Shown in pieces: positions 39,001 to 57,000 of a DNA stretch of 64,000 bases. A model generated the notes under the pieces. That model saw only the letters and a program-made list of their open reading frames with translations, was not told where the DNA came from and ran no database searches. Numbering within the stretch: the stretch's first letter is position 1; every line of letters starts with the position of its first letter. This DNA comes from Candidatus Omnitrophota bacterium (GTDB lineage Bacteria > Omnitrophota > Gorgyraeia > Velamenicoccales > Velamenicoccaceae): assembly GCA_043819345.1 (NCBI GenBank), contig JBDREX010000009.1, positions 39,911 to 103,910 on the forward strand, in the 5' to 3' direction. The position numbers and the translations under genes are program-made.

Positions 39001-42000
39001 TTTCCGAAGAGTTCAAAACTGGGACACGCACAGAATAAGAAAAACCTGACGGGCCTAAGCGATAATATTCAAGACTGGCATCCACATGAACAATGCCGTT
39101 TCCATCATGGTCAATACATACATCGCAAACCTTGAATAATTTCTGAATATTACTCATCCGGGATAAAAAGCTTAAATAAGCATCATCCAGCGCGTCGCAA
39201 GGAGCAAAATCCTGCCCGGCAGAAAATAAAGGCAAAAGAACCGTCAGATAATCCTCAACAGCCAAAAGAAGTTTGCCATGGATATCGTCACGCCGAGCCT
39301 GTGAAGCATCTACTAAGCTAATTATATGATTGATAGCTATCTTTAAGAGCCTAGTTTCCCGCTTAATCCTCCTTTTGAGGACTTTCTGGGCTATTTCAAC
39401 ATCAGAGATAAATTTTTGACATTCCACAAACTTACGAAATTGTTCATAATGACGGCACAGGTCCTCTACGTACATCATACTACCCTGCAAAAACCTTGAA
39501 ATCAGCTCCTCTAGATACTTTTTCTCATCATCAGATAACCTGACAATTTTGAGATGCCAAACTGGACGCAGAATATATCCGTCCTGTCCTAATCCAATTT
39601 CCTGCCTATCAAGAGATGAAGAAACAGAATGATCAGTCTCTTCTGAAACATCTTTGAGATAAACCTCACCAGACTGTCCTTCGTCATCAAAACTATGCCC
39701 TTCAACCATATTATGTTTATTCGGCCAAAAATACCCAACAGATTTCGTTATGCCTACCACTAAAACCGCCCCGGCCATATACATAACAATGTCAAGCATA
39801 TCGCATCGTGCCCCAGGTCGAATTTTTTGATAAACAGGTAATTTTTGTAATAGCTCTAAAACAAACGACAAAAGCAGCATCTTTTTCATTGTCGTCTTCG
39901 CGGGAAGCCCAAGCTGAAATAACGCGTAAATAGTTAACAACACACCTAAAACAAAATCATCCAGATAATAATGAGCAAATTGACCTAATAGGCTAAATCT
40001 TGAAACGCTGGGTTTTAAGAAAAATAGGTTCACCTGCCTGCAGGTTAAACCAAGAATCATCAAGACAATGGACAATCTATACTCCCAAAGCAAGATCTTC
40101 AAATACTTCAGCAAAAGTACCATGAGCTTAAAAAAACGCTTCCCAAAAGAATAAGAACGCGGCTGTACAAAACTGCAGCCATGAGAATCATTCTTTACTC
40201 TTTTTCCACGAGTCTCTTTATTGTTCTTTTTCTTCGTCACTTCCCTTGCCGTTGAAACCGTAACAAATTTTGCGCCTGCATGGCTCTGTTTATGAAATTT
40301 CCATCTAATAGGACTGGAACCTAAATCGTCTAATCCAAAAACAGAACCCGAATAAGACAATTGAGAAAAAATAGAAGAGCTGGAGCCATCATATTCAGAT
40401 TCCCGGCTATCTGGCCTTTTTGGAAGGTTTTCTTCAACAATAACATTGTTTTGAAAAGAAGAAGAATAGGCCTGACCGTTAAAGGAGCCTTCGAGATACG
40501 GCAAAAATGAAACTTTGCAGGAAAAATCAACAGGTTCTTCCACCTTTTGCGAAAGGTAAGTAATAAACCATTCCACAAAAATCACTAAAGCGTTTTTAAC
40601 ATGAGAAGTCTTTAAAAAATTTATTCCTAGCTTATAATAAGCGATCACAAAAGAAGGATCTATCTGGATAGCTGCCTGCAACTCAATAATAGCTTTCATG
40701 GGTTGGCCTAGTTTGGAATAAGCACAACCCAAATTATAATGAGCTAAAGGCTGCTTCACATCCAACTCTAAAGCCCTCAAAAATTCCCGAACCGCGGCAC
40801 CATGTTGATTCAGCTTATCCAAACAACACCCGAAATTATTATGAGCCATACCATAAAAACTATTGAGCATGACGGCTTTTTCAAAAAGAAGAGACGCCTG
40901 AGGATAATGGCCTAAAATCATATAAATTCTTCCCATATTAGACAAAATATTAGGTGTCATCGCATAAGAATTGAGCTCCTGTAAATCATGATACATAATA
41001 TTTAATAACTCTCTGTCAGGCAATAGTCTTACATGTTTTTGTCCAGCTTTAAGCTGTGCCAGCAAGAAGAAAACTTCACGAGAGGAAAGACAATAATTTT
41101 CTTTTAAGACAAAACGCCCATGCCCTTTGTGCACATAATACTTCTTAAGATCAATCACCCTGACAAGGTTATTGATATAATCAATAAAAAGGGCTTTCTC
41201 TTTAGAAATCGTTATCCAATTAAATACATGCTCTCCTTCCTTCTGACTACGCAAAGGCACAACAAAATTCTTTGAATTAATACCCGCCCAATGCAACAAA
41301 ATATGTGTCAGCTGAGCAACAACTGTGCACGCCAAAAGATCTCTTTTTTCTGAAATCTTCTTTTCTTTTGATAAATGCGCTTTGTCTATCTCTTCAAAAA
41401 TAACTTTACCCCCCTCGTCCAAACACTTAACTAATTGTTGTGTTAACATGCTTGCATTGAACAAATACAAATAAGCGTTCTTTTCTAAATCCTCCATCAG
41501 CTTTAAAAGCAGCCTCTGCAATGCAATAACATCACACGCCGCCAAAGCCTGCCTTAAAGACGGGACATAAAGACTCTTGTAATGAAGCACCTTATCTAAA
41601 ATCATAAACTTCTGTTTAAGCTGCTGAATATCATTTTGGCAATAGGCGATCTTTTCTAAAATAATGTCTGGGGGTTCCTCCTTTATCAACTGTGTGGACA
41701 AAATAGAGCTAACGCTTTTATCAAGGTCTATTTGATTATAAACATGAAGGTCTCTCTCTTGCGGCTCCCTGGTTTTACCAATATAATTAGGGAGCACAAA
41801 AAAACCATAACCTTGTTTTGAAGCTATTTTAAAAACAAGCCTGCTCAACTCAGGCGCGGAAGGAATGATGCAATATTTAAAAAGCTTTTTCTTTAAAATC
41901 AACTCTCGACTTCCAGCGGATTGCCCTTCTATTGATTTTAAAAGCTTAGACACAAAAAATAACTCTCCTGCCACCCATGGATGCTTCTCCTGCTTCGCTA

Positions 42001-48000: not shown

Positions 48001-51000
48001 ACATTATTAAAAAGATACCTTCCATTATCGTGCGATAGCAAATAAACAATCCCGTTTCCGTAATACGAGAAATAGGCTCTATAAACATCTTGTCTAGACA
48101 AATTCCATACATAACCCCTTTAAGAAAAGAAGCTGCGTGAGCCAATCTCAAACGCAAAGAAGGTTGAAATTCTAAAACCTGCGCGCATGCATTAGCATGC
48201 TTAATAAGAGATGAAGACACCATGTTTTCCAAAGAAGGCAAGAGATGCATCTCCTGTGCCAAGCGCACGCTTGCCACCATCGCCAGAAAATGCCTGTCTA
48301 AATCAAATGCCTTAGACATAAGATGAGCCCCGTAAGAGGAATGAAACTCCGGAGCATCAACATTGTAATCATGACAAACAAAACAGGAAATATGTTGAAA
48401 TGGAAAGACCAGGCTTAAGAGCTGAAACTGTTTATATCTGCGCAACCACAAACCATTATCCATGCCTTTGTGATGGCGCAATAACCCATGCCGATTAATG
48501 ATTTCCTTTGAACCAATATATCTCTCTAAAACACCTTCTTCCAGAAAGCTCCACTTATCCTCCAAAACACTATCCTGAATCCGTAAGACTTCTTCAAAAT
48601 AACTCCGTTGAGCGCCATAAAAAATAGAGACGATAAGCCTCATCCTCTTTAAAACATCTCCCTCTGATACACTATCCCATTGTTTTCGCGTACCTTCAGA
48701 CAAATAATCTCTTATAACTGCATTCGCGCTATCAAAAGATGGCCACATGAAACGACAGGAAAAAGAAAATCTCTCTCTCAAGACAACCTGAAAAACTCTC
48801 ATCATCATGATATATGAAATAAACTCCCTCTTGCGGCACAAATTTTCAACCGCCGCTATGATCTTATCGTCAATAAGATCATAGCGGGATAAAATTAAAT
48901 ATATTTGCCCTATTTTTCTGTCAATATGTTCACACAAACTCTCCAAAGAAGAATACCCTTGCTTAACACAGGATTGAATCTCATGAAATCCTTTTATGTC
49001 TTTTTGCTGAAACAAACAATCCAGCTCCCAAAAAATAGAAGAATATTCCCGCATACAACTTTCTTTTATCCCCGGAACTTTCTGATAATGACGGCTCAAC
49101 TCTCTTCTCAGCTTCAAGCATGATTTCTTCAAATACAACCCTTCCTCATAACGCCTGACAAAAAACCATGCCTTATCAATTAATTCTTTAGCTCCAGAGG
49201 CTAAAATCTGTGCCTCACCCAAATTCCTTTCATTTCTCTTGCAATAATCCCGCTGAAACTTCTTCATCTCTTCTACAAGCGCAATAATCTCTTCTGGAAA
49301 AATATCAAAACTGAAAAATAAGGCATCCTGTTGTCTCTGAACACGGCTATCTCTCGCTAAACTAAAACCCATGCGTTCCATATTTATCATAGCACGGCGC
49401 AAAGGTGTAATCCGAATTGATGAAACATCACGAACAATGCTGTCTATAATAGAAAAGGCATGTTTTTTAATATAGGTAATGATTAGATCCATCTGTTTAA
49501 AGGTATCATTGATTAAAAAAGGCAACTGCGGTTCACCTTCCATAGCGCTGGAAACGGTTTTATCCAATTTGGCAATAAGATTTTCCATTGTACGCGAAAT
49601 ATCACTCCGCATGAGATCCGGACGAGCACTATATATTAAAGATTGCACAGCCTCCCAATCGCGGTAGTAACAGTTTTTTAATACTTTATCGGCATCATAG
49701 TCATCAAAGCTTTCCAATAAGCGCCATATGGATTCAAACACGCCAAAACCAAATAACCTTTCTGTTTGATGAATATAAGGAATAAGCCTAGATTGCAACT
49801 GTGCAAACGACAAAGACGCACGCAAAGCAAGGCCCTGATCACCAAATAAATCCATAACACGCTGTTGCACCAAAAACGGATTTCTTAAATACATAAACTC
49901 CCGTTTCGCATTCCTTATTAAAAAGATATACTTTAAACGACGCTGTAAGGTCGTCATATCCTCATGTAAAACAATGCGCTCAAGCCCATATAGCGAATAA
50001 ACCAACCGCACCGGAACATCTCTTTTTCTAGAAAAAATATTCAGGAACTCCTGAGAAGAAACAGTCGCGTAAGAAAAAGTTAACTGTGTTTTTTGACTAG
50101 AAAATAAACATATCTCACCCTCATTCCACAGTCGCTCCACATCATGCGGAGCTGCCGGCAAAGTTTGGAGCATCTTTAAAGACATCTCCTTTACAGCAGA
50201 CGAAGAAACACTCTCCAGCAACTCAGCAAACTCATTCTGGAGGTCATCAATAGTTTTAATCTGATTTTGCTTCACACGTTCATCAGGAAACCACTGGCCT
50301 AACCCCTCCGTAATGATCTGCTGATTTCCATCAAGCTTTATATGTTCTCTCTCTAATGGATCCCATGGTTCAAGCTTATATTCATACCGTTTTCCTAATT
50401 GAATCTTCTGCCAATTTAAAACAAAAACCTGTTTTCCTTGTGCATATGCCTGCCTGGCTGTATCAACGGTCGCGCTATAACGAGCACACTCAGCAATAAC
50501 CAATATCCTTGATAATCCACTGATAATTCTGTCACGGGCAAAATGCCTTAAAAGACAACTCTTTCTATCATAGGCAAAATCATCATATTCAGATAAAAAA
50601 CAACCATCAAATTGTAAAATCCCCTGTTCAATAAATTTGCGTTCCGGATGGCACGTATTAGAAAATGCACCCTGAGGATCAGACGAAAAACCATCCCCTA
50701 AAACAGAAACAACCCTTCCCCGTTCATCCAAAGCGCCAATCTCAGAAGCCAACTCACTGCCAAAATCATGCCCTGTGACCAATGTCCAGCTATGCATTGC
50801 AGCTGTTTGTGCCAAAGCCTGAACAACACGAAATGTAGCCAAGGTGATGCGCGTCGCACCTGAAAAGTTAACCGTATGCAAATTCCGTAAAACACCCGCG
50901 TTACCTAAATAATAAAGCTCCTGCGGCAACTGAAAATCTTTTTTCCTATACTTTTGCTCATGCCTGGAAATCATCCTTTTAATCTCCTTGCACTTAAAGA

Positions 51001-54000
51001 AGCGCATGGTATCCAGATAATATTGATCAACATAATCCATCGTTTCCGCGACAGAAGGAAATTCTCTCAGTTTAATCTTTCCCATATTAATAGGTGAAGA
51101 CGCCTTGTCTAGCAGGGCTTTAAACGCAGCCTGCAAGCGAGGAATTGTTTCAATGATGGGCTGACGCGCTGTAAAAGCCGGAAACCACTCGGCCAAACCT
51201 TCGCGGACAATCTGAAGGCCACCGTCTTGCTTAATACTCTCTTTCTGTGTCGGGCTATAAATTTCAATACGACCTCCTATCTCCATTCCTAGGCGAACCC
51301 TCTCCCAATTCAAAGCAAACACTTTCTTGCCTTGCATATAAGCCTGGCGTACCGTATCAACTGTTGCGCTATTCTCAGCAGCTTCTACAATCATCAATAC
51401 TTTTGAAAAACCGCTCAACATTCTGTCACGATCAAGATGCCTTATAATCCGCTCATCTTTTGATAGCGCATCCTGCTTATACTCTGAAACAAAACAACCA
51501 CCAAATTGAAGTATCAATTCTTCAAAAAATCCCCGATCAGGAAGCAAGATTCTTGGCAAGACATGCTTATTTCGTATCTTCAGCGCATCACCCAATACAG
51601 CAATAATGCGCCCCTTCTGACTCAACGCCCCTAGCTCTGAAGCCAATTCACTACCCCAAACATGCCCTGTCACCAAGGTCCAATCATACGCGGCGGCCGC
51701 TTGAGCTAGAGCATAAATAATACGTGTTCCGGAACAAGACAAATTTGTCGTCCCTGAAAAATTTATAGTCTTAACAAAAGATAAAGCATTAGAATTACCG
51801 TAATAATAGATTTTTTCAGGTAACTGCACATCCTTAATTTCATAGGGCCGCCCGGAACGAAATTTTAACCGTTCATACCCTTTTTCTTCATATTCTTTGA
51901 TCAAAGACGGAAATTTTTCTTGCACATAACTGGCAACATCACGCAAATAACTAAAATTCCGTAAATTCATCCTACCCTTAGATACCGAAGAAGAAGCACC
52001 AGAAACACCGGGAGAAAATCTCACATGGCGAAAATCAGGCCCAAGACCGAGGAAAAATTCATTAAGTTTTTTAGCAGATGCCTTCAGATCAATCTTACCC
52101 TCTTCTATTAATTGCTTAATCATCTTATGAGATGTAGTTGGCTTCCACCACTGGTGGTTAAGAAAATCCAACGACTGATTCTTTTTTAAAGCTACAACAA
52201 TACGTATTTTCCAGTATTTAATATAATCAAAATACTCATTCAAGACGCGGCGTAAAAAATCATAATTATACTCCTGATTATACTGAAGTAAGCCCAAATC
52301 ATTGAGCACAACAATCCTTTCAGGTATCAATTCTAACTTTAACGATGCCTCTGTATAATACCGCTTGTAACCAAAAAGATTTTCTTCTCTTAACCAACCG
52401 GATGTGAGTTGGTTAAGCTTTTCCCAGGCATCAGGCGGCATATTATCCTTATAAAATACTAGGTCAATCAGTTCGCCTCGCATCTCAACATTCTCATGCT
52501 GATTCACCCTGCCTATCTGCTTACCCATACGTTTTAACACCGGTTGAGGAATACCCTGCTGTATAAAAAATGCGTATCCGTAAACCTGCTCATACTCCAA
52601 ATATCCTAAATCATTCAATTCTGCTATCTTATCAACATCAACAGCCAACCATAAAAAACCGCTGCCATAAATTCGCCCATAACCATAGGGATGTGTTTTT
52701 CCAGACCAAAAAGAAGTTTCCTCAACCAACCCTTTCCAAGCTTCAAGCGGCATATCCTGCTTATAAAAACGCAGGTCTAATAAAGCACGATGCGCACGAA
52801 CTTCTTCATACAGTTTTTTTACGGATTCCTGAATCGGCGGCTCCGGCCTTATTGAAACAAGTGCTTCTGTCTTCCCTCTAACAGGCTTCCATTGATCCTT
52901 TAAAAACAAATAAACATATATTTCCTGGTTTACCTCTTTAGGTAAACAAACTATATTCCCTGGCCTAATCTGTGGGATACCTTTTCTGTTCAAATGGATT
53001 TGAGGATTAACCGTTAAAATTTCTCTCCACCGTGATCCAAGATCATAGGAATGATCTTTCGCTGTTCTTGTATTTTGAAAAATATATTTTGACAGATTCC
53101 ATAAAGTATCTCCTGCCTCAATACGACAGGTAACCACTTGTTTATTGCTAGGTTCATAGGCATAACGCGACATGTCTGTGAAAGGGACAGCGGCTGAAAC
53201 AGAAGCAGGCAGATAAAGTAAAACAAAAAGAAGGATTGTAATAAAGAAAAACGCGATTCTCAAGCGCCCATTACAATTGTTTTGTTTTAAAACAAGAGAG
53301 CCTGATATGCTTGATGATACATCCTTATCATCGTTATTTTCAGATGAAAACATGGCCCTAGCCAGATGAGAAAATCCAACCATACAAAAAGCATGTAATA
53401 CAGCAGCCATCATGACAAAATAATTTCTATCAAGAACCCCATATAATAAAATACCAAAACTCATAAAATAATACGTCAGCGAATCTTCATACATATTTCT
53501 AAAAAAGCAGCTACACAAAGAGTTAAAACTCTTTGTGATAACATAGCTATAAATAAGAAAAACCGCTATTATAATTAGCCTATGTGTAGAGGATCCTTGT
53601 TTATAGATATTCTCAAAAATTTGAAAAGGATTATTTATAAAGTTATCTATTGTGCATCCAATCCCAAAACCGATAAAAGCAGATGTAAAATAACATGCCT
53701 CCTGGAAAACTATGTTAAAAAGAAAAGTAAGCTTTTTAAAAAGAGGCGAGCTCGCGCTCAATTCTTTCTGGCCTAATAGCTCTTTTGATATTTGTTCAAT
53801 CGCCTTAAAAATATCGCGTTCACGAACAAGAATACTTGCAAAGCGCCACAAATCACTTGAACCTGAATCAATACCACTTGCTTCTAAGGCAATACCGGCC
53901 AAATAATACCCAAAAACATAGGGCCCTTGAGCCACAAAAGTTTTGTCCCTATCAAAATATAATTTTTCCCCGTCCAATCCTTCTCCGATAAACAGATTTA

Positions 54001-57000
54001 TCTGAATTAAATATGAGCGATCTCCTGTATTAACAAACTCACGCACTATCTTCCTACCAAAAGACACATACTCTTCTTCTTCCGCGCTCAGATCTGAAAG
54101 TTCAATTTTTCGGATTGCTTCAACAAAAGTTGCGCATGGATTTTCCTTGCCCTCATAACCCAAAATGGGCTCAAGCACATGAAAAGCTTCGTGACAGGCA
54201 AGCGCCATATAGTCCTTATCAAAAAATTCTGCTCTTAAATAAACAGCTTTACCAGGAAATGTAACAGCCTGATATTTCGCATATTGCAAAGGCACCATAA
54301 AAAGAACAATGGCTGTTACAACACCTGCCGTAGCAGCAATAGAATTATCCCACACCGTTCCTTTCCGCCTCTCCAAAGTACAAATAAAGATAGCCCCTGA
54401 CAGAACAACAAATAGTCCGACACCTACAACAGTTTTACAAACAGTATGCATAAAAGAATACATTAACAAATGCCAACCATCCAAAGCAAAAACAGGGCAA
54501 CAAGAGACCTGAGAGAATTTTTCTATAGCGGAAAACTCCTTCGTCAATAAATATAACTCACGATAATAAAGACACAACTGGCGCTGTGACAACGGATGTC
54601 TCAGAAAATAAAAGACAGCGATGGGGATAGAAATAATAGCAACATAGATTAAAACTGGCGTGATATTTTTAAGCATTGATTTCAGAAATCTGCCTATAGG
54701 ACTTGAAGAAGGGAGTAATTCCAGCATTTCCGCCAACTTAACGCAAGCAACCATATACCTAAAACTTTCATCCAAGTCAAACCGGCCGGCCAGCTGTCTA
54801 GCCACAAACGCATAATCTAAATCAAAAGAATCCCAGCCATATCTTGTCTTAAAAAGATTATCGCGACTGAGAGATAAATCCGCCGGAAAAGCCAATTTTA
54901 AAAGCTTAACCTGTTGATATAACTTTACATAAGACAGTTCTGAAAAATGCCTGGCTTGCTCTAATTCTATATTTCTTTCTTTCTCAAGGCCCTCCAAAGC
55001 AAATACATACCCTGTCTTAACAATCCGAAAACACTGCAAAAGAACCTCATGAAAAATATCCATAAGCAGGTTGGCCTGTAAAACACGCTGATTCCCCGAA
55101 GACTTTTCAAAAATATCCTGCACATCAGATGACAACTGTAAACGGCCATGATCCGTCAAATACTCTTTAATAGTACGAGAAATATCCGCATAACTTGACA
55201 TTTCTTCAAAAGTATCAAAAAGCACAGCAAATCTGTTGATAACAACCTGAAACATTCTCATCCGCATCAATTCAATCAAAAGATCAATATCCCTGATTTT
55301 AGAAATCATATTGGTCTCAGTCAGGCAACCTCTCTCTCCATAATTAGATATTAAAACCATCACCTCCGAACGAATCAAAATAGCACGAGCCTTAAAGCGG
55401 ATTAAAAATTCCTCCTGTTGGGCCATGATGCGGACAAATCTTTCAAAAGGCATACGGCCATTAGTATTTTCTAATAGAGATAGCACTCTAAAGAAATGCC
55501 TCACGTATCCTCGCAAACCATTCACATAAGAAGCAACAGACAAAAGCTCCAACAGCTTAACCTCTTCATCTGATGTTATTGGCCGAGGAGCAAAACCTCT
55601 ATTTCTTGGATAACTCCTCATCAACTGATAAGCATAATCGATTAAAGCTACAACATCAGCATCTTCTGCTACTTGCCGTCTTTGTGCTATGCTGCGATTA
55701 AAGCCGCTAATCTTATAGGTCAAAGATCTGACTTTTTCAAGCGTTTCTTCAACCAGCGGCTGCTCAAACCCGGCAACAATCGATCTTGTTTCTTTTAAAG
55801 AATTAAAACCTGGTACTTCACCATTAATCTCAAATTTCAATACTTCACAAGCCTGTTCCAGCTCATGAGTCGCAATCATTAACTCTCGCATTAACTCTGA
55901 GCAAGAAGGCCTATTGCGAACAACTCTATTTTTCTCAATAACATAAAGAAGGTCTGCTTTTAACCTACCTGAGAAAACCATATCTAAAATAGGAAATACT
56001 TCACAGAGATTACGCCAATAGGCTTTTTGTAAACGCAGAGGGCTTGAAAATTCAGTCGCCCCCACCACACAAGACAACTCTTGCACGAAACAGCTTCCCT
56101 CAAACATATGTAAATATCCCTTAAGTCCTGAATCCAACTTTCTGGCTTCACTTACAGGAGAACTCAAAGGATCAATTTCATCTAAAAACAAAGGCAAATA
56201 TGGCCTTTGATCTTTATCAAAACGGCCGCGGTTTTTTTTCTTGGCGCCAACAACAGACCAGCGCCGCAGGCAAGGCAATGACGGAAACGCAGCATTTTCT
56301 ATAAGTTTCATCGCCTCTTCATCTGTAAACTCAACTGTTTCAGCCGTCTCTTTAACCGCGGGAGACAGCGTCTGTAATTCCACCTTAAATATTCCCCGCC
56401 CTAAATCATTAATACGAACATCAAACAATTCACCTCCAAGATCATTGATGATCTTCGCGCCTCTCCCCCTCACTCTGCCCGGAGTCGTGTTTGTTGATAA
56501 ACCAGGTGTGATCAAAATATTGGCAAGATCTTCCTTAGAACCTTCGAAATAACAAAGATTCGATGTTTTAATCAAAAGTTGCCTACCGAACAAAGAAATA
56601 TCCAGCACCACTTCATTCTTTGCTTCATTAAATAAGAATCCTCCCTCTGCAAGCCTTTCTTCTATCTTTCGTCTCTGCTCATCCGCATTCTTGATTCTAT
56701 TGACAAGAATCAAATAGATCTGCCCAGCAACGATAAAAGGAATCTTTATTTCTCCAACCTTATCGGCTGTCACATCCCGATACTCATAAATATAATCTTT
56801 GACTTTCCTAATAGATCCAACACCGACAAGATGAAGAATATGCCTCAGCTTAAAAGATCCCTGTAACATCGTCGTCTCAGGTTTGAATCGAACAATATAA
56901 TAATGCCGCAAAGACACAAACAGCCAATACATCAAAAACACTCTACCCGTCAAAGAAAGCTCTTTATCGCGATTATCAACAGTTTCAAGAAAATCTCGTT

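Follow-up and report, generated by a model that had tools for sequence, protein, structure and literature searches.

Does a run of domains that resembles a secreted, wall-bound nucleotide binder act as one unit, or do its parts lie side by side in a very large gene for other reasons? This question is raised by a region of the 64,000-nucleotide stretch of Candidatus Omnitrophota DNA that we analyzed (positions 39,911 to 103,910 of contig JBDREX010000009.1; hereafter, the window), in which a signal-peptide-like segment, a LysM-like domain, two 104-amino-acid (aa) repeats, and two 298-aa units with DprA/Smf-like domains follow one another. An initial annotation had read these elements as a single, envelope-facing cassette in which nucleotide or nucleic acid binding is coupled to wall attachment. 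All of the elements were found where it had placed them, on the minus strand and in the frame of the open reading frame (ORF) that spans the window. However, we found that they do not form a single cassette. They are three neighboring modules of one mosaic, many-pass membrane ORF, and the order in which LysM and DprA-like modules follow each other is unique to this genome.

A giant ORF built from modules

The source genome (G000; 1.88 Mb in 63 contigs, 92% complete) carries in the window a single minus-strand ORF that runs from one end to the other. It is part of a giant ORF (C9:10202-115070) of at least 34,956 codons, open over 105 kb. The 5' end of this ORF is missing, since the contig ends there, so 34,956 aa is a lower bound. 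A KD19 hydropathy scan of the whole ORF returned 118 windows above threshold, corresponding to several dozen transmembrane (TM) clusters.

A recurrent SS[S/P]x motif delimits the modules. In the form SS[SP][PLVIAM] it occurs 69 times in the giant ORF, compared with 5.8 +/- 2.5 times in shuffled sequences, and its copies have a median spacing of 330 aa. Near the region of interest it lies at giant-protein residues 7282, 7723, 8021, 8319, and 8982, and copies were located on the minus strand of the window at 53738-53752, 53306-53317, 51983-51994, 51089-51100, and 50195-50206. The junction positions around the region therefore yield four pieces, of 441, 298, 298, and 663 aa, of which the first three make up what had been described as one cassette. 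The motif is not confined to this ORF: as SSSP, SSSS, or SSSG, it borders DprA-like units elsewhere, namely in further giant ORFs and in a relative of the units, P0003, and SSSP-type junctions are also present in ORFs of the genomes G184, G218, and G023. It could be where the chain is cleaved or glycosylated, or it could act as a linker.

The features of the region are given below in the direction of translation, with structure predictions made with AlphaFold2 (AF2) and their confidence given as the predicted local distance difference test (pLDDT) score; G001 is a second genome of the same genus.

53306-53317, minus strand: junction motif SSSI at giant-protein residue 7282, start of the 441-aa module
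53192-53287, minus strand: internal signal-peptide-like segment (n-region KQNNCNGRLR, h-region IAFFFITILLFVLLYL, c-region PASVSA↓A, the arrow marking the putative cleavage site)
52940-53137, minus strand: divergent, probable LysM-like domain, from sub-threshold hidden Markov model (HMM) matches, PDB profile matches, and a low-confidence AF2 model
52469-52780, minus strand: copy 1 of the 104-aa repeat, from alignment with copy 2; core LDLRFYKQDMPLEAW at 52736-52780
52157-52468, minus strand: copy 2 of the 104-aa repeat, from alignment with copy 1; core IDLVFYKDNMPPDAW at 52424-52468
51995-52156, minus strand: helical linker closing the 441-aa module; AF2 helices with pLDDT 64-85 (model residues 321-390), conserved in contig C5 of G001
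51101-51994, minus strand: DprA-like (SLOG) unit 1, 298 aa, Rossmann core at about 51308-51829, bordered by SSSV and SSPI
51743-51760, 51623-51670, 51404-51442, and 51305-51373, minus strand: unit 1 motifs GTT, GSEL.SE, RDR, and SATVDT, respectively
50207-51100, minus strand: DprA-like (SLOG) unit 2, 298 aa, Rossmann core at about 50414-50941, bordered by SSPI and SSSA
48206-50206, minus strand: module of about 663 aa after unit 2, with borders at giant-protein residues 8319 and 8982; it shares a TM-free segment with the LysM-like domain and the DprA-like units

Each 298-aa module is a captured DprA-like gene

The assignment of both units to the DprA family, which had been proposed from the sequence, is solid. 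The Pfam model DNA_processg_A (PF02481) matched the pair in two stretches with E=2.9e-39 (134.9 bits), and a scan of the whole genome gave 72.4 bits for unit 1 and 71 bits for unit 2, against a gathering score of 29.6. An AF2 model of unit 2 built from 38 sequences reached a pLDDT of 90.7 and a predicted TM-score (pTM) of 0.91. Foldseek placed this model closest to H. pylori DprA (HpDprA; 5mll/4ljr; E=1.7e-13, TM-score 0.77 by target length), followed by ShosA (8zva; E=1.2e-12) and the DprA proteins of R. palustris and S. pneumoniae (3maj and 3uqz), which identifies a DprA-type Rossmann fold. Weaker matches to Moco-carrier, LOG, and ThsA-SLOG structures (2iz5, 6y01, 5wq3, 5zbk, and 7uxs; E=8e-6 to 1e-3) place it in the wider SLOG fold, and the Pfam LDcluster4 model reached 23.1 bits on the units, below its cut-off of 26.3.

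The two units align to each other with a score of 666 (z=132), and 129 of their 298 positions (43%) are identical. Stand-alone members of their clade, 250 to 330 aa long, match the entire unit, including the N-terminal helix, the Rossmann core, and the C-terminal tail (HMM positions ~13-277 of 280). Because the relatives cover the unit from end to end, we conclude that each 298-aa module derives from the capture of a complete gene and that a tandem duplication followed. When one unit served as the query of a word-indexed search in 5.8 billion proteins, only four weak canonical DprAs were returned. The tandem pair found no match when searched against genome contigs, and all homologues recovered with the tandem query aligned to unit 2 only.

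The units are separate from canonical DprA

Given the strength of the family match, the units could be true DprA paralogues that bind incoming single-stranded DNA (ssDNA) and load RecA, for example for DNA from prey. In addition to the PF02481 score, the best fold matches, to HpDprA with and without ssDNA, would agree with this role. However, G000 has its own canonical DprA (379 aa, 267.8 bits, contig C10), and the two units together reach only 137.1 bits against the 191.15-bit cut-off of the TIGR00732 equivalog model. A tree of 154 domains places unit 1 as the sister of unit 2 (support of 95 in the Shimodaira-Hasegawa-like approximate likelihood ratio test, SH-aLRT) and groups the pair with the C-terminal module of the relative P0002 (99); they fall within a clade of 43 members (support 84) that lies apart from canonical DprA, the gene of G000 itself included. 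Pfam detects neither a SAM domain nor a winged helix (PF17782) in the units, each of which consists of a helical N-terminal extension, the Rossmann core, and a short tail.

The residues that contact DNA point the same way. Two ssDNA-binding signatures, G-S/T/A-R and F/L/Y-x-x-R-N/D, have been proposed from the HpDprA-ssDNA structure, and the R52E substitution in HpDprA causes a ~315-fold loss of ssDNA affinity (Wang et al. 2014, PMC3950713). The first signature belongs in the loop that follows the first core strand; there, where 3uqz has GSR and ShosA GTR, unit 1 reads GTT and unit 2 reads GAT followed by R, so that the arginine is missing or shifted. At the second signature unit 1 has HLDRD and unit 2 HFARD; both keep the R-D pair, as they do the RDR/SGLS block, but the first residue (position -3) is His, for which the clade consensus is Leu. 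With these differences in mind, we regard RecA loading by the units as the least probable of the readings that we considered.

We also asked how well the units preserve the conserved positions of their own clade. Of 44 columns that are at least 80% conserved, unit 1 keeps 25 and unit 2 keeps 26, and the departures cluster in a glycine-rich loop, where the SGG..GID..AH of the family has become TGH..GSEL.SE. Such changes (18 to 19 of 44 columns, including the near-invariant D and H), together with the rapid turnover of modules between congeneric genomes, would be expected if the units were decaying passengers, that is, folded but functionless remnants of a captured gene that persist only with the giant frame. 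We consider this highly improbable. The remaining signature blocks (SEY, R..R.R, E, S.T.D, and QG) are intact, the predicted fold is of high confidence, and the frame has stayed open over 105 kb. Moreover, unit 1, unit 2, and P0002 have the remodeled TGH..GSEL.S loop in common despite a mutual identity of only ~43%, which suggests a derived but maintained specificity rather than decay.

Relatives of the units occur in nucleotide- and nucleobase-related contexts

If the units do not act as canonical DprA, the genes that accompany their relatives may give an indication of what they bind. We examined the neighborhoods of six stand-alone members of the clade. In four of these (L053, L055, L056, and L057), a gene of the xanthine/uracil permease family (Xan_ur_permease) lies at most two genes away, and in two of the permease contexts homologous membrane proteins of ~220 aa (32% identical, with a weak SdrD_B match) are encoded between the permease and the DprA-like gene. 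The three genes are a possible, so far undescribed, nucleobase-related module, and our literature search found no link between SLOG/DprA proteins and permeases. At locus L051 (4846-10860), a stand-alone DprA-like gene follows a pVip-like radical-SAM gene and precedes a gene for a 1,263-aa TIR_2 protein, with CHAT, RyR, and DUF4062-STAND genes nearby; this region looks like a conflict-system island. Another stand-alone context is a region with a relaxase and a type IV secretion system coupling protein, as in a conjugative element. When we compared the partner genes of the stand-alone relatives with the modules of the giant protein, none matched.

Fused relatives show a similar range of partners. 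P0002 joins B12-binding and radical-SAM domains to the unit, P0007 joins it to an ART-PolyVal ADP-ribosyltransferase domain, and in the G023 ORF domains resembling deoxynucleoside monophosphate kinase and starch synthase/glycosyltransferase are found more than 1,300 residues from the unit. In this small sample, the contexts suggest a center on nucleotides and nucleobases, not recombination. The separate clade, the lack of SAM and winged-helix domains, the missing ssDNA-binding arginine, and these neighbors (permease, radical SAM, and TIR) therefore make a SLOG-type nucleotide or ligand role, as predicted from sequence and gene context, likelier than RecA loading. In this respect the SLOG-type role that the initial annotation mentioned fits the units better than that of canonical DprA. 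Our results also separate a short DprA-like clade from real DprA, for whose members the automatic label "DNA-processing protein DprA" may mislead.

The 441-aa module carries a probable LysM domain and two genus-specific repeats

The 441-aa module begins with a segment that has the n/h/c organization of a Sec signal peptide (KQNNCNGRLR followed by IAFFFITILLFVLLYLPASVSA↓A) and a KD19 hydrophobicity of 2.48. The helix carries charges of +3/0 on its N side and +1/-2 on its C side, and it ends in a small-x-small site; both G001 paralogues likewise read VSA or VYA after the helix. The position of the segment is not that of a Sec signal peptide, as it is internal, at least 7,300 aa from the N terminus of the ORF.

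Every signal that we obtained from the following domain points to LysM, as had been proposed, although each is weak. The Pfam LysM model (PF01476) covers the domain almost completely (model positions 2-43 of 43), but its score of 13.9 bits (E=0.053) is below the gathering score of 20.9, so that of the two families on which the initial annotation was built, PF02481 passed its cut-off and LysM did not. Further matches were to NFP LysM2 (E=0.024) and to the NCBIfam model of YneA, a LysM protein (E=0.019). A profile of the three paralogues, of which those from G001 are 45-52% identical, found only two chains in the PDB, both from LysM proteins: LytE 8i2e (E=0.034), which covers the first strand and helix, and 4uz2 (E=1.6), which covers the second helix and strand. 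AF2 gave the domain a strand-helix-helix-strand order (E18-22, H28-38, H49-60, and E79-83), with a pLDDT of only ~50-57, and a ~20-aa insertion separates the two helices. We conclude that a LysM identity is probable, although it is not statistically established by sequence alone.

Two repeats follow, and here the proposed repeat structure held exactly. Their cores are spaced by exactly 104 aa, and their local alignment scored 150, compared with 27.7 +/- 5.2 in shuffles (z=23.7; 31 of 71 positions identical). The repeats are found only in this genus: they match no Pfam family and no PDB relative, the LysM-plus-repeats piece drew 0 matches among 5.8 billion proteins in a word-indexed search, and in an exhaustive HMMER search with the 998-aa cassette the best 150 matches listed all aligned to the DprA part and none to the LysM or repeat part. 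The second half of copy 2 and the linker after it are 70-72% identical to a sequence in contig C5 of G001. The structure prediction suggested for the repeat gave no usable fold: the AF2 model of LysM plus repeats from three sequences was too poor for a fold search (overall pLDDT 44), with a pLDDT <50 in the repeat.

The order of LysM and DprA-like modules is unique to this genome

Among 41 close relatives, the LysM module is present only in G001, where it occurs without DprA units, and the DprA unit is present only in G023. In a sample of 401 genomes of the phylum, units inside long ORFs (at least 4,768 aa) are restricted to G000, G218, G334, and G184, while the other hits are ordinary DprA genes of 300-400 aa. 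The architecture is thus as unusual as had been supposed (four of 401 genomes, G000 included, plus G023). In the ORFs of G218, G334, G184, and G023, however, the flanking modules are different, and there is no recognized LysM domain or signal-like helix within several hundred residues of the unit. The same domain order, for which the initial annotation suggested a search in other giant genes, was not found in any of them.

Even within the genus, the order differs. The LysM-like domain of G001:C10 forms a short loop with TM helices on both sides. That of G001:C5 (L013, ORF residues ~2225-2390) breaks off after its first helix and continues in frame into the second half of repeat 2; an internal deletion has removed the part between RW(R)EI and (L)ELIPER, which indicates that modules erode as well as shuffle. 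Module order is also scrambled between the two genomes, with the module after the LysM remnant in G001:C5 matching G000 residues 5737-6289. Since the LysM-DprA order is confined to one genome, a functional coupling of the two is unsupported, and so is the proposed link to wall attachment. We infer that their adjacency reflects lineage-specific module shuffling rather than an obligate functional pair.

Is the segment exported or cytoplasmic?

Although the modules are separate, they share a compartment. Between giant-protein residues 7322 and 9030 the maximum KD19 value is 1.26, with no hydrophobic stretch until the next TM cluster, ~1,700 aa downstream. Because no TM-like stretch lies between the signal-like helix and that cluster, the LysM-like domain, the repeats, both DprA-like units, and the 663-aa module are not separated by the membrane. 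This makes the locus a test case for the topology of giant proteins, in that a wall binder (LysM) and a nucleotide-binder fold (SLOG) must be placed together, and one answer serves both.

We lean toward the prediction that this side is the outside. The charge bias of the helix flanks is that of an N-in/C-out segment, and the VSA↓A site has its counterparts (VSA/VYA) at the same place in both G001 paralogues. LysM domains are normally extracytoplasmic. In three relatives (P0002, P0003, and P0007), a signal-like peptide at the N terminus precedes the unit, and no clear TM helix lies between the two; P0007 has one marginal hydrophobic stretch (KD19 1.62) there. The genes that flank P0003 also start with signal peptides, and signal peptidase I is encoded in G000. 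No SecA_DEAD domain (PF07517) was detected in contig C9, that is, in the available 34,956 aa, and none reached the Pfam cut-off elsewhere in the 92% complete assembly, where the only trace is a 22.6-bit fragment at the start of contig C42; the canonical secA of G000 may lie in an assembly gap.

Under the account of the whole locus that we favor, if only cautiously, shuffling has brought these mosaic modules together. Sec would export the segment, which would then stay tethered at the VSA↓A site or be released there. Its LysM-like domain would hold it at peptidoglycan, whether that of its own cell or that of a host or prey. The DprA-like units would bind, and possibly process, a ligand derived from a nucleotide or nucleobase, or a short single-stranded end, without loading RecA, and the altered glycine-rich loop of units 1 and 2 and P0002 would reflect an altered but maintained specificity.

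Several observations weigh against this account. The next TM cluster looks like a hairpin of two helices, and the loop after it is very basic (KRYG...KRRIRSSGKRH); by the positive-inside rule, the segment before the hairpin would be cytoplasmic. Helix parity and the positive-inside rule give contradictory topologies at the two ends of the segment. SLOG/DprA domains, like the radical-SAM/B12 domain of P0002, use cytoplasmic cofactors and nucleotides. The LysM score is below the Pfam threshold and the model of the first module is poor (pLDDT 44), the permease association comes from only six contexts, and the replacement of the near-invariant D and H (GID..AH) in both units could also mean that their function was lost. 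Folded export via Tat is unlikely, as we found no TatC in the G000 assembly.

Some of these observations would be expected if the ~1,700-aa segment were cytoplasmic instead. The signal-like helix would then be the last of a polytopic anchor, the LysM-like fold would be repurposed or a relic, and the units would be tethered to the inner face of the membrane and act on cytoplasmic nucleotides or nucleic acids. The presence of other cytoplasm-type enzymes in the ORF (FBPase_glpX, Fic, and LMWPc) fits this arrangement, and the main texts of two papers on Omnitrophota giants describe those with TM helices only as predicted to be mostly cytoplasmic, with topology calls that are unverified and unreliable (10.1101/2023.11.21.568195; 10.64898/2026.06.07.730766). 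The arrangement does not explain the N-in/C-out charge bias, the conservation of the VSA↓A site in the paralogues, the LysM-like domain of G001:C10 in its short loop between TM helices, or the three relatives whose unit follows an N-terminal signal peptide. A cytoplasmic location of the segment is therefore possible, although we think it the less probable side, and the complete arrangement with a repurposed LysM fold and tethered units is, in our judgment, rather unlikely. The envelope-facing orientation that had been proposed agrees with the signal features and the relatives and conflicts with the downstream hairpin and basic loop.

Could the modules act on other cells?

An exported segment could also serve a purpose outside its own cell. 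Omnitrophota are a phylum with described giant genes, and the main texts of the two papers propose that the giants act at the cell surface or at prey walls (10.1101/2023.11.21.568195; 10.64898/2026.06.07.730766). On this model, the giant would be a prey-directed "polyvalent" effector platform that, once exported and possibly cut at internal signal-peptide sites and at SS[S/P]x, presents its enzyme modules to a host or prey cell that is attached to it, or delivers them; LysM would dock on peptidoglycan, and the SLOG units would sequester or degrade nucleotides or nucleotide-derived signals of the target. The fusion of the unit in P0007 to an ART-PolyVal domain, which is typical of polyvalent proteins, would be consistent with this model, as would cytoplasm-type domains behind signal peptides (radical SAM in P0002 and an ADK domain in a neighbor of P0003). 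SLOG domains are known sensors of cyclic ADP-ribose-type signals, and our fold search matched the ThsA SLOG domain (7uxs). Nevertheless, delivery, cleavage, and prey are all purely conjectural, the remodeled loop leaves the competence of the units uncertain, and the association is unique to one genome. We thus consider an effector platform improbable.

In the surroundings of P0003 (L058; ENA ERZ24794679, contig NODE_6235, 4688-16157), a row of large genes on the same strand encodes proteins of 1,099, 1,580, 921, and at least 211 aa, each of which opens with a classical signal peptide, and the complete genes end in Ala-Ala (...REAA, ...LIAA, and ...YQAA), as does P0002 (...DSAA). The row looks like a "split" giant gene, its pieces encoded separately and marked by a conserved tag at the C terminus. 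A further idea is that giant genes of Omnitrophota could be fused operons of secreted proteins, in which an SS[S/P]x junction links one captured gene to the following one and every such gene retains its signal peptide. After Sec export, signal peptidase (at VSA↓A-type sites) and another protease (at the junctions) would cut the product, and the modules would be released or tethered at the interface with a host or prey cell, with the DprA-like units acting as exported binders or hydrolases of nucleotide signals held by LysM. This is a speculative proposal that we think unlikely to hold as a whole; if true, the DprA branch of the SLOG fold would here be put to an extracytoplasmic or effector use for the first time.

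Giant Omnitrophota genes and DprA-like SLOG proteins were both already known. What is new here is the occurrence of a DprA-branch module inside giants, rare as it is (four of the 401 sampled genomes plus G023), the presence of DprA-like units behind signal-like peptides, and the anatomy of the module, with a whole captured gene, tandem duplication, and a junction motif. The region shows how giant genes are built up, by whole captured genes (here for a ~280-aa stand-alone protein) that are linked by junctions, duplicated, and reshuffled between species of one genus.

Other features of the window

Elsewhere in the window, Pfam domains in the giant ORF are TPR, Peptidase_M48 with its N-terminal domain, FBPase_glpX, Fic, and LMWPc. 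The 663-aa module that follows unit 2 matches no Pfam family and gave no meaningful PDB match. Just upstream of the 441-aa module, a HExxH motif (ACHEAFHVLEP; 54179-54193, minus strand; giant-protein residues 6990-6994) belongs to a soluble loop that spans ~180 aa and separates two TM clusters. The loop has no Pfam match and may be a second zinc-protease-like module besides M48. Two ORFs of 103 aa lie on the opposite strand inside the giant gene (52570-52881 and 56241-56552, plus strand); no evidence supports them, and they are most likely chance frames.

Comparison with known systems

The 441-aa module resembles secreted LysM proteins (LytE 8i2e, 4uz2, and YneA) in having a signal-like helix directly before a strand-helix-helix-strand unit and in its G-D-T-L-W and I-R-P-G-x-x-x-x-L-P blocks. 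It differs from them in its sub-threshold score, the ~20-aa insertion, the internal position of the "signal peptide", and its one-genus range.

With canonical DprA/Smf (PF02481 and TIGR00732; HpDprA 4ljr/5mll and SpDprA 3uqz), the units share the fold and the blocks SEY, RDR-I-SGLS, E-A, S-x-T, and QG-K-V. They differ in clade, in a score below that of TIGR00732, in the absent or shifted arginine, and in lacking SAM and winged-helix domains; they are also tandem modules in a membrane giant, in a genome that has its own DprA. The ShosA/PsyrA antitoxins (Shosta and PsyrTA; PDB 8zva and 9vzo; PADLOC PDLC03961) are similar in length (~300 aa) and have an N-terminal extension before the Rossmann core that aligns with that of the units: query residues 12-221 align with residues 74-271 of the ShosA chain, and the ShosA HMM scores 71-74 bits on the units (73.8 on unit 1). 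ShosA keeps GTR where unit 1 has GTT. An antitoxin of this type was rejected as an identity for the units, as PRTase and toxin models matched neither the modules on either side of the units nor any partner gene of the stand-alone relatives that we examined. To SLOG sensors and enzymes (LOG, Moco-carrier protein, YpsA, and ThsA SLOG; PMC6459960 and PMC7272460), the likeness is one of fold class; in sequence, the DprA branch is nearer to the units than LOG, YpsA, or ThsA, and the units are without PGGxGTxxE.

For the ORF as a whole, the closest comparison is with the "Archaeovorin"-type giants (West-Roberts et al. 2023, bioRxiv 10.1101/2023.11.21.568195; 2026 preprint 10.64898/2026.06.07.730766). 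The main text of neither paper mentions DprA, SLOG, or LysM modules. The divergent SecA DEAD domain of these giants is absent from the available part of our ORF, whose 5' end is cut off, and we make the assignment to this subtype tentatively. Nonetheless, the ORF has in common with them a length above 30,000 aa in a genome of ~2 Mb, dozens of TM clusters, scattered and divergent "metabolic" domains (FBPase and TPR), and the same ambiguity between an inside and an outside topology.

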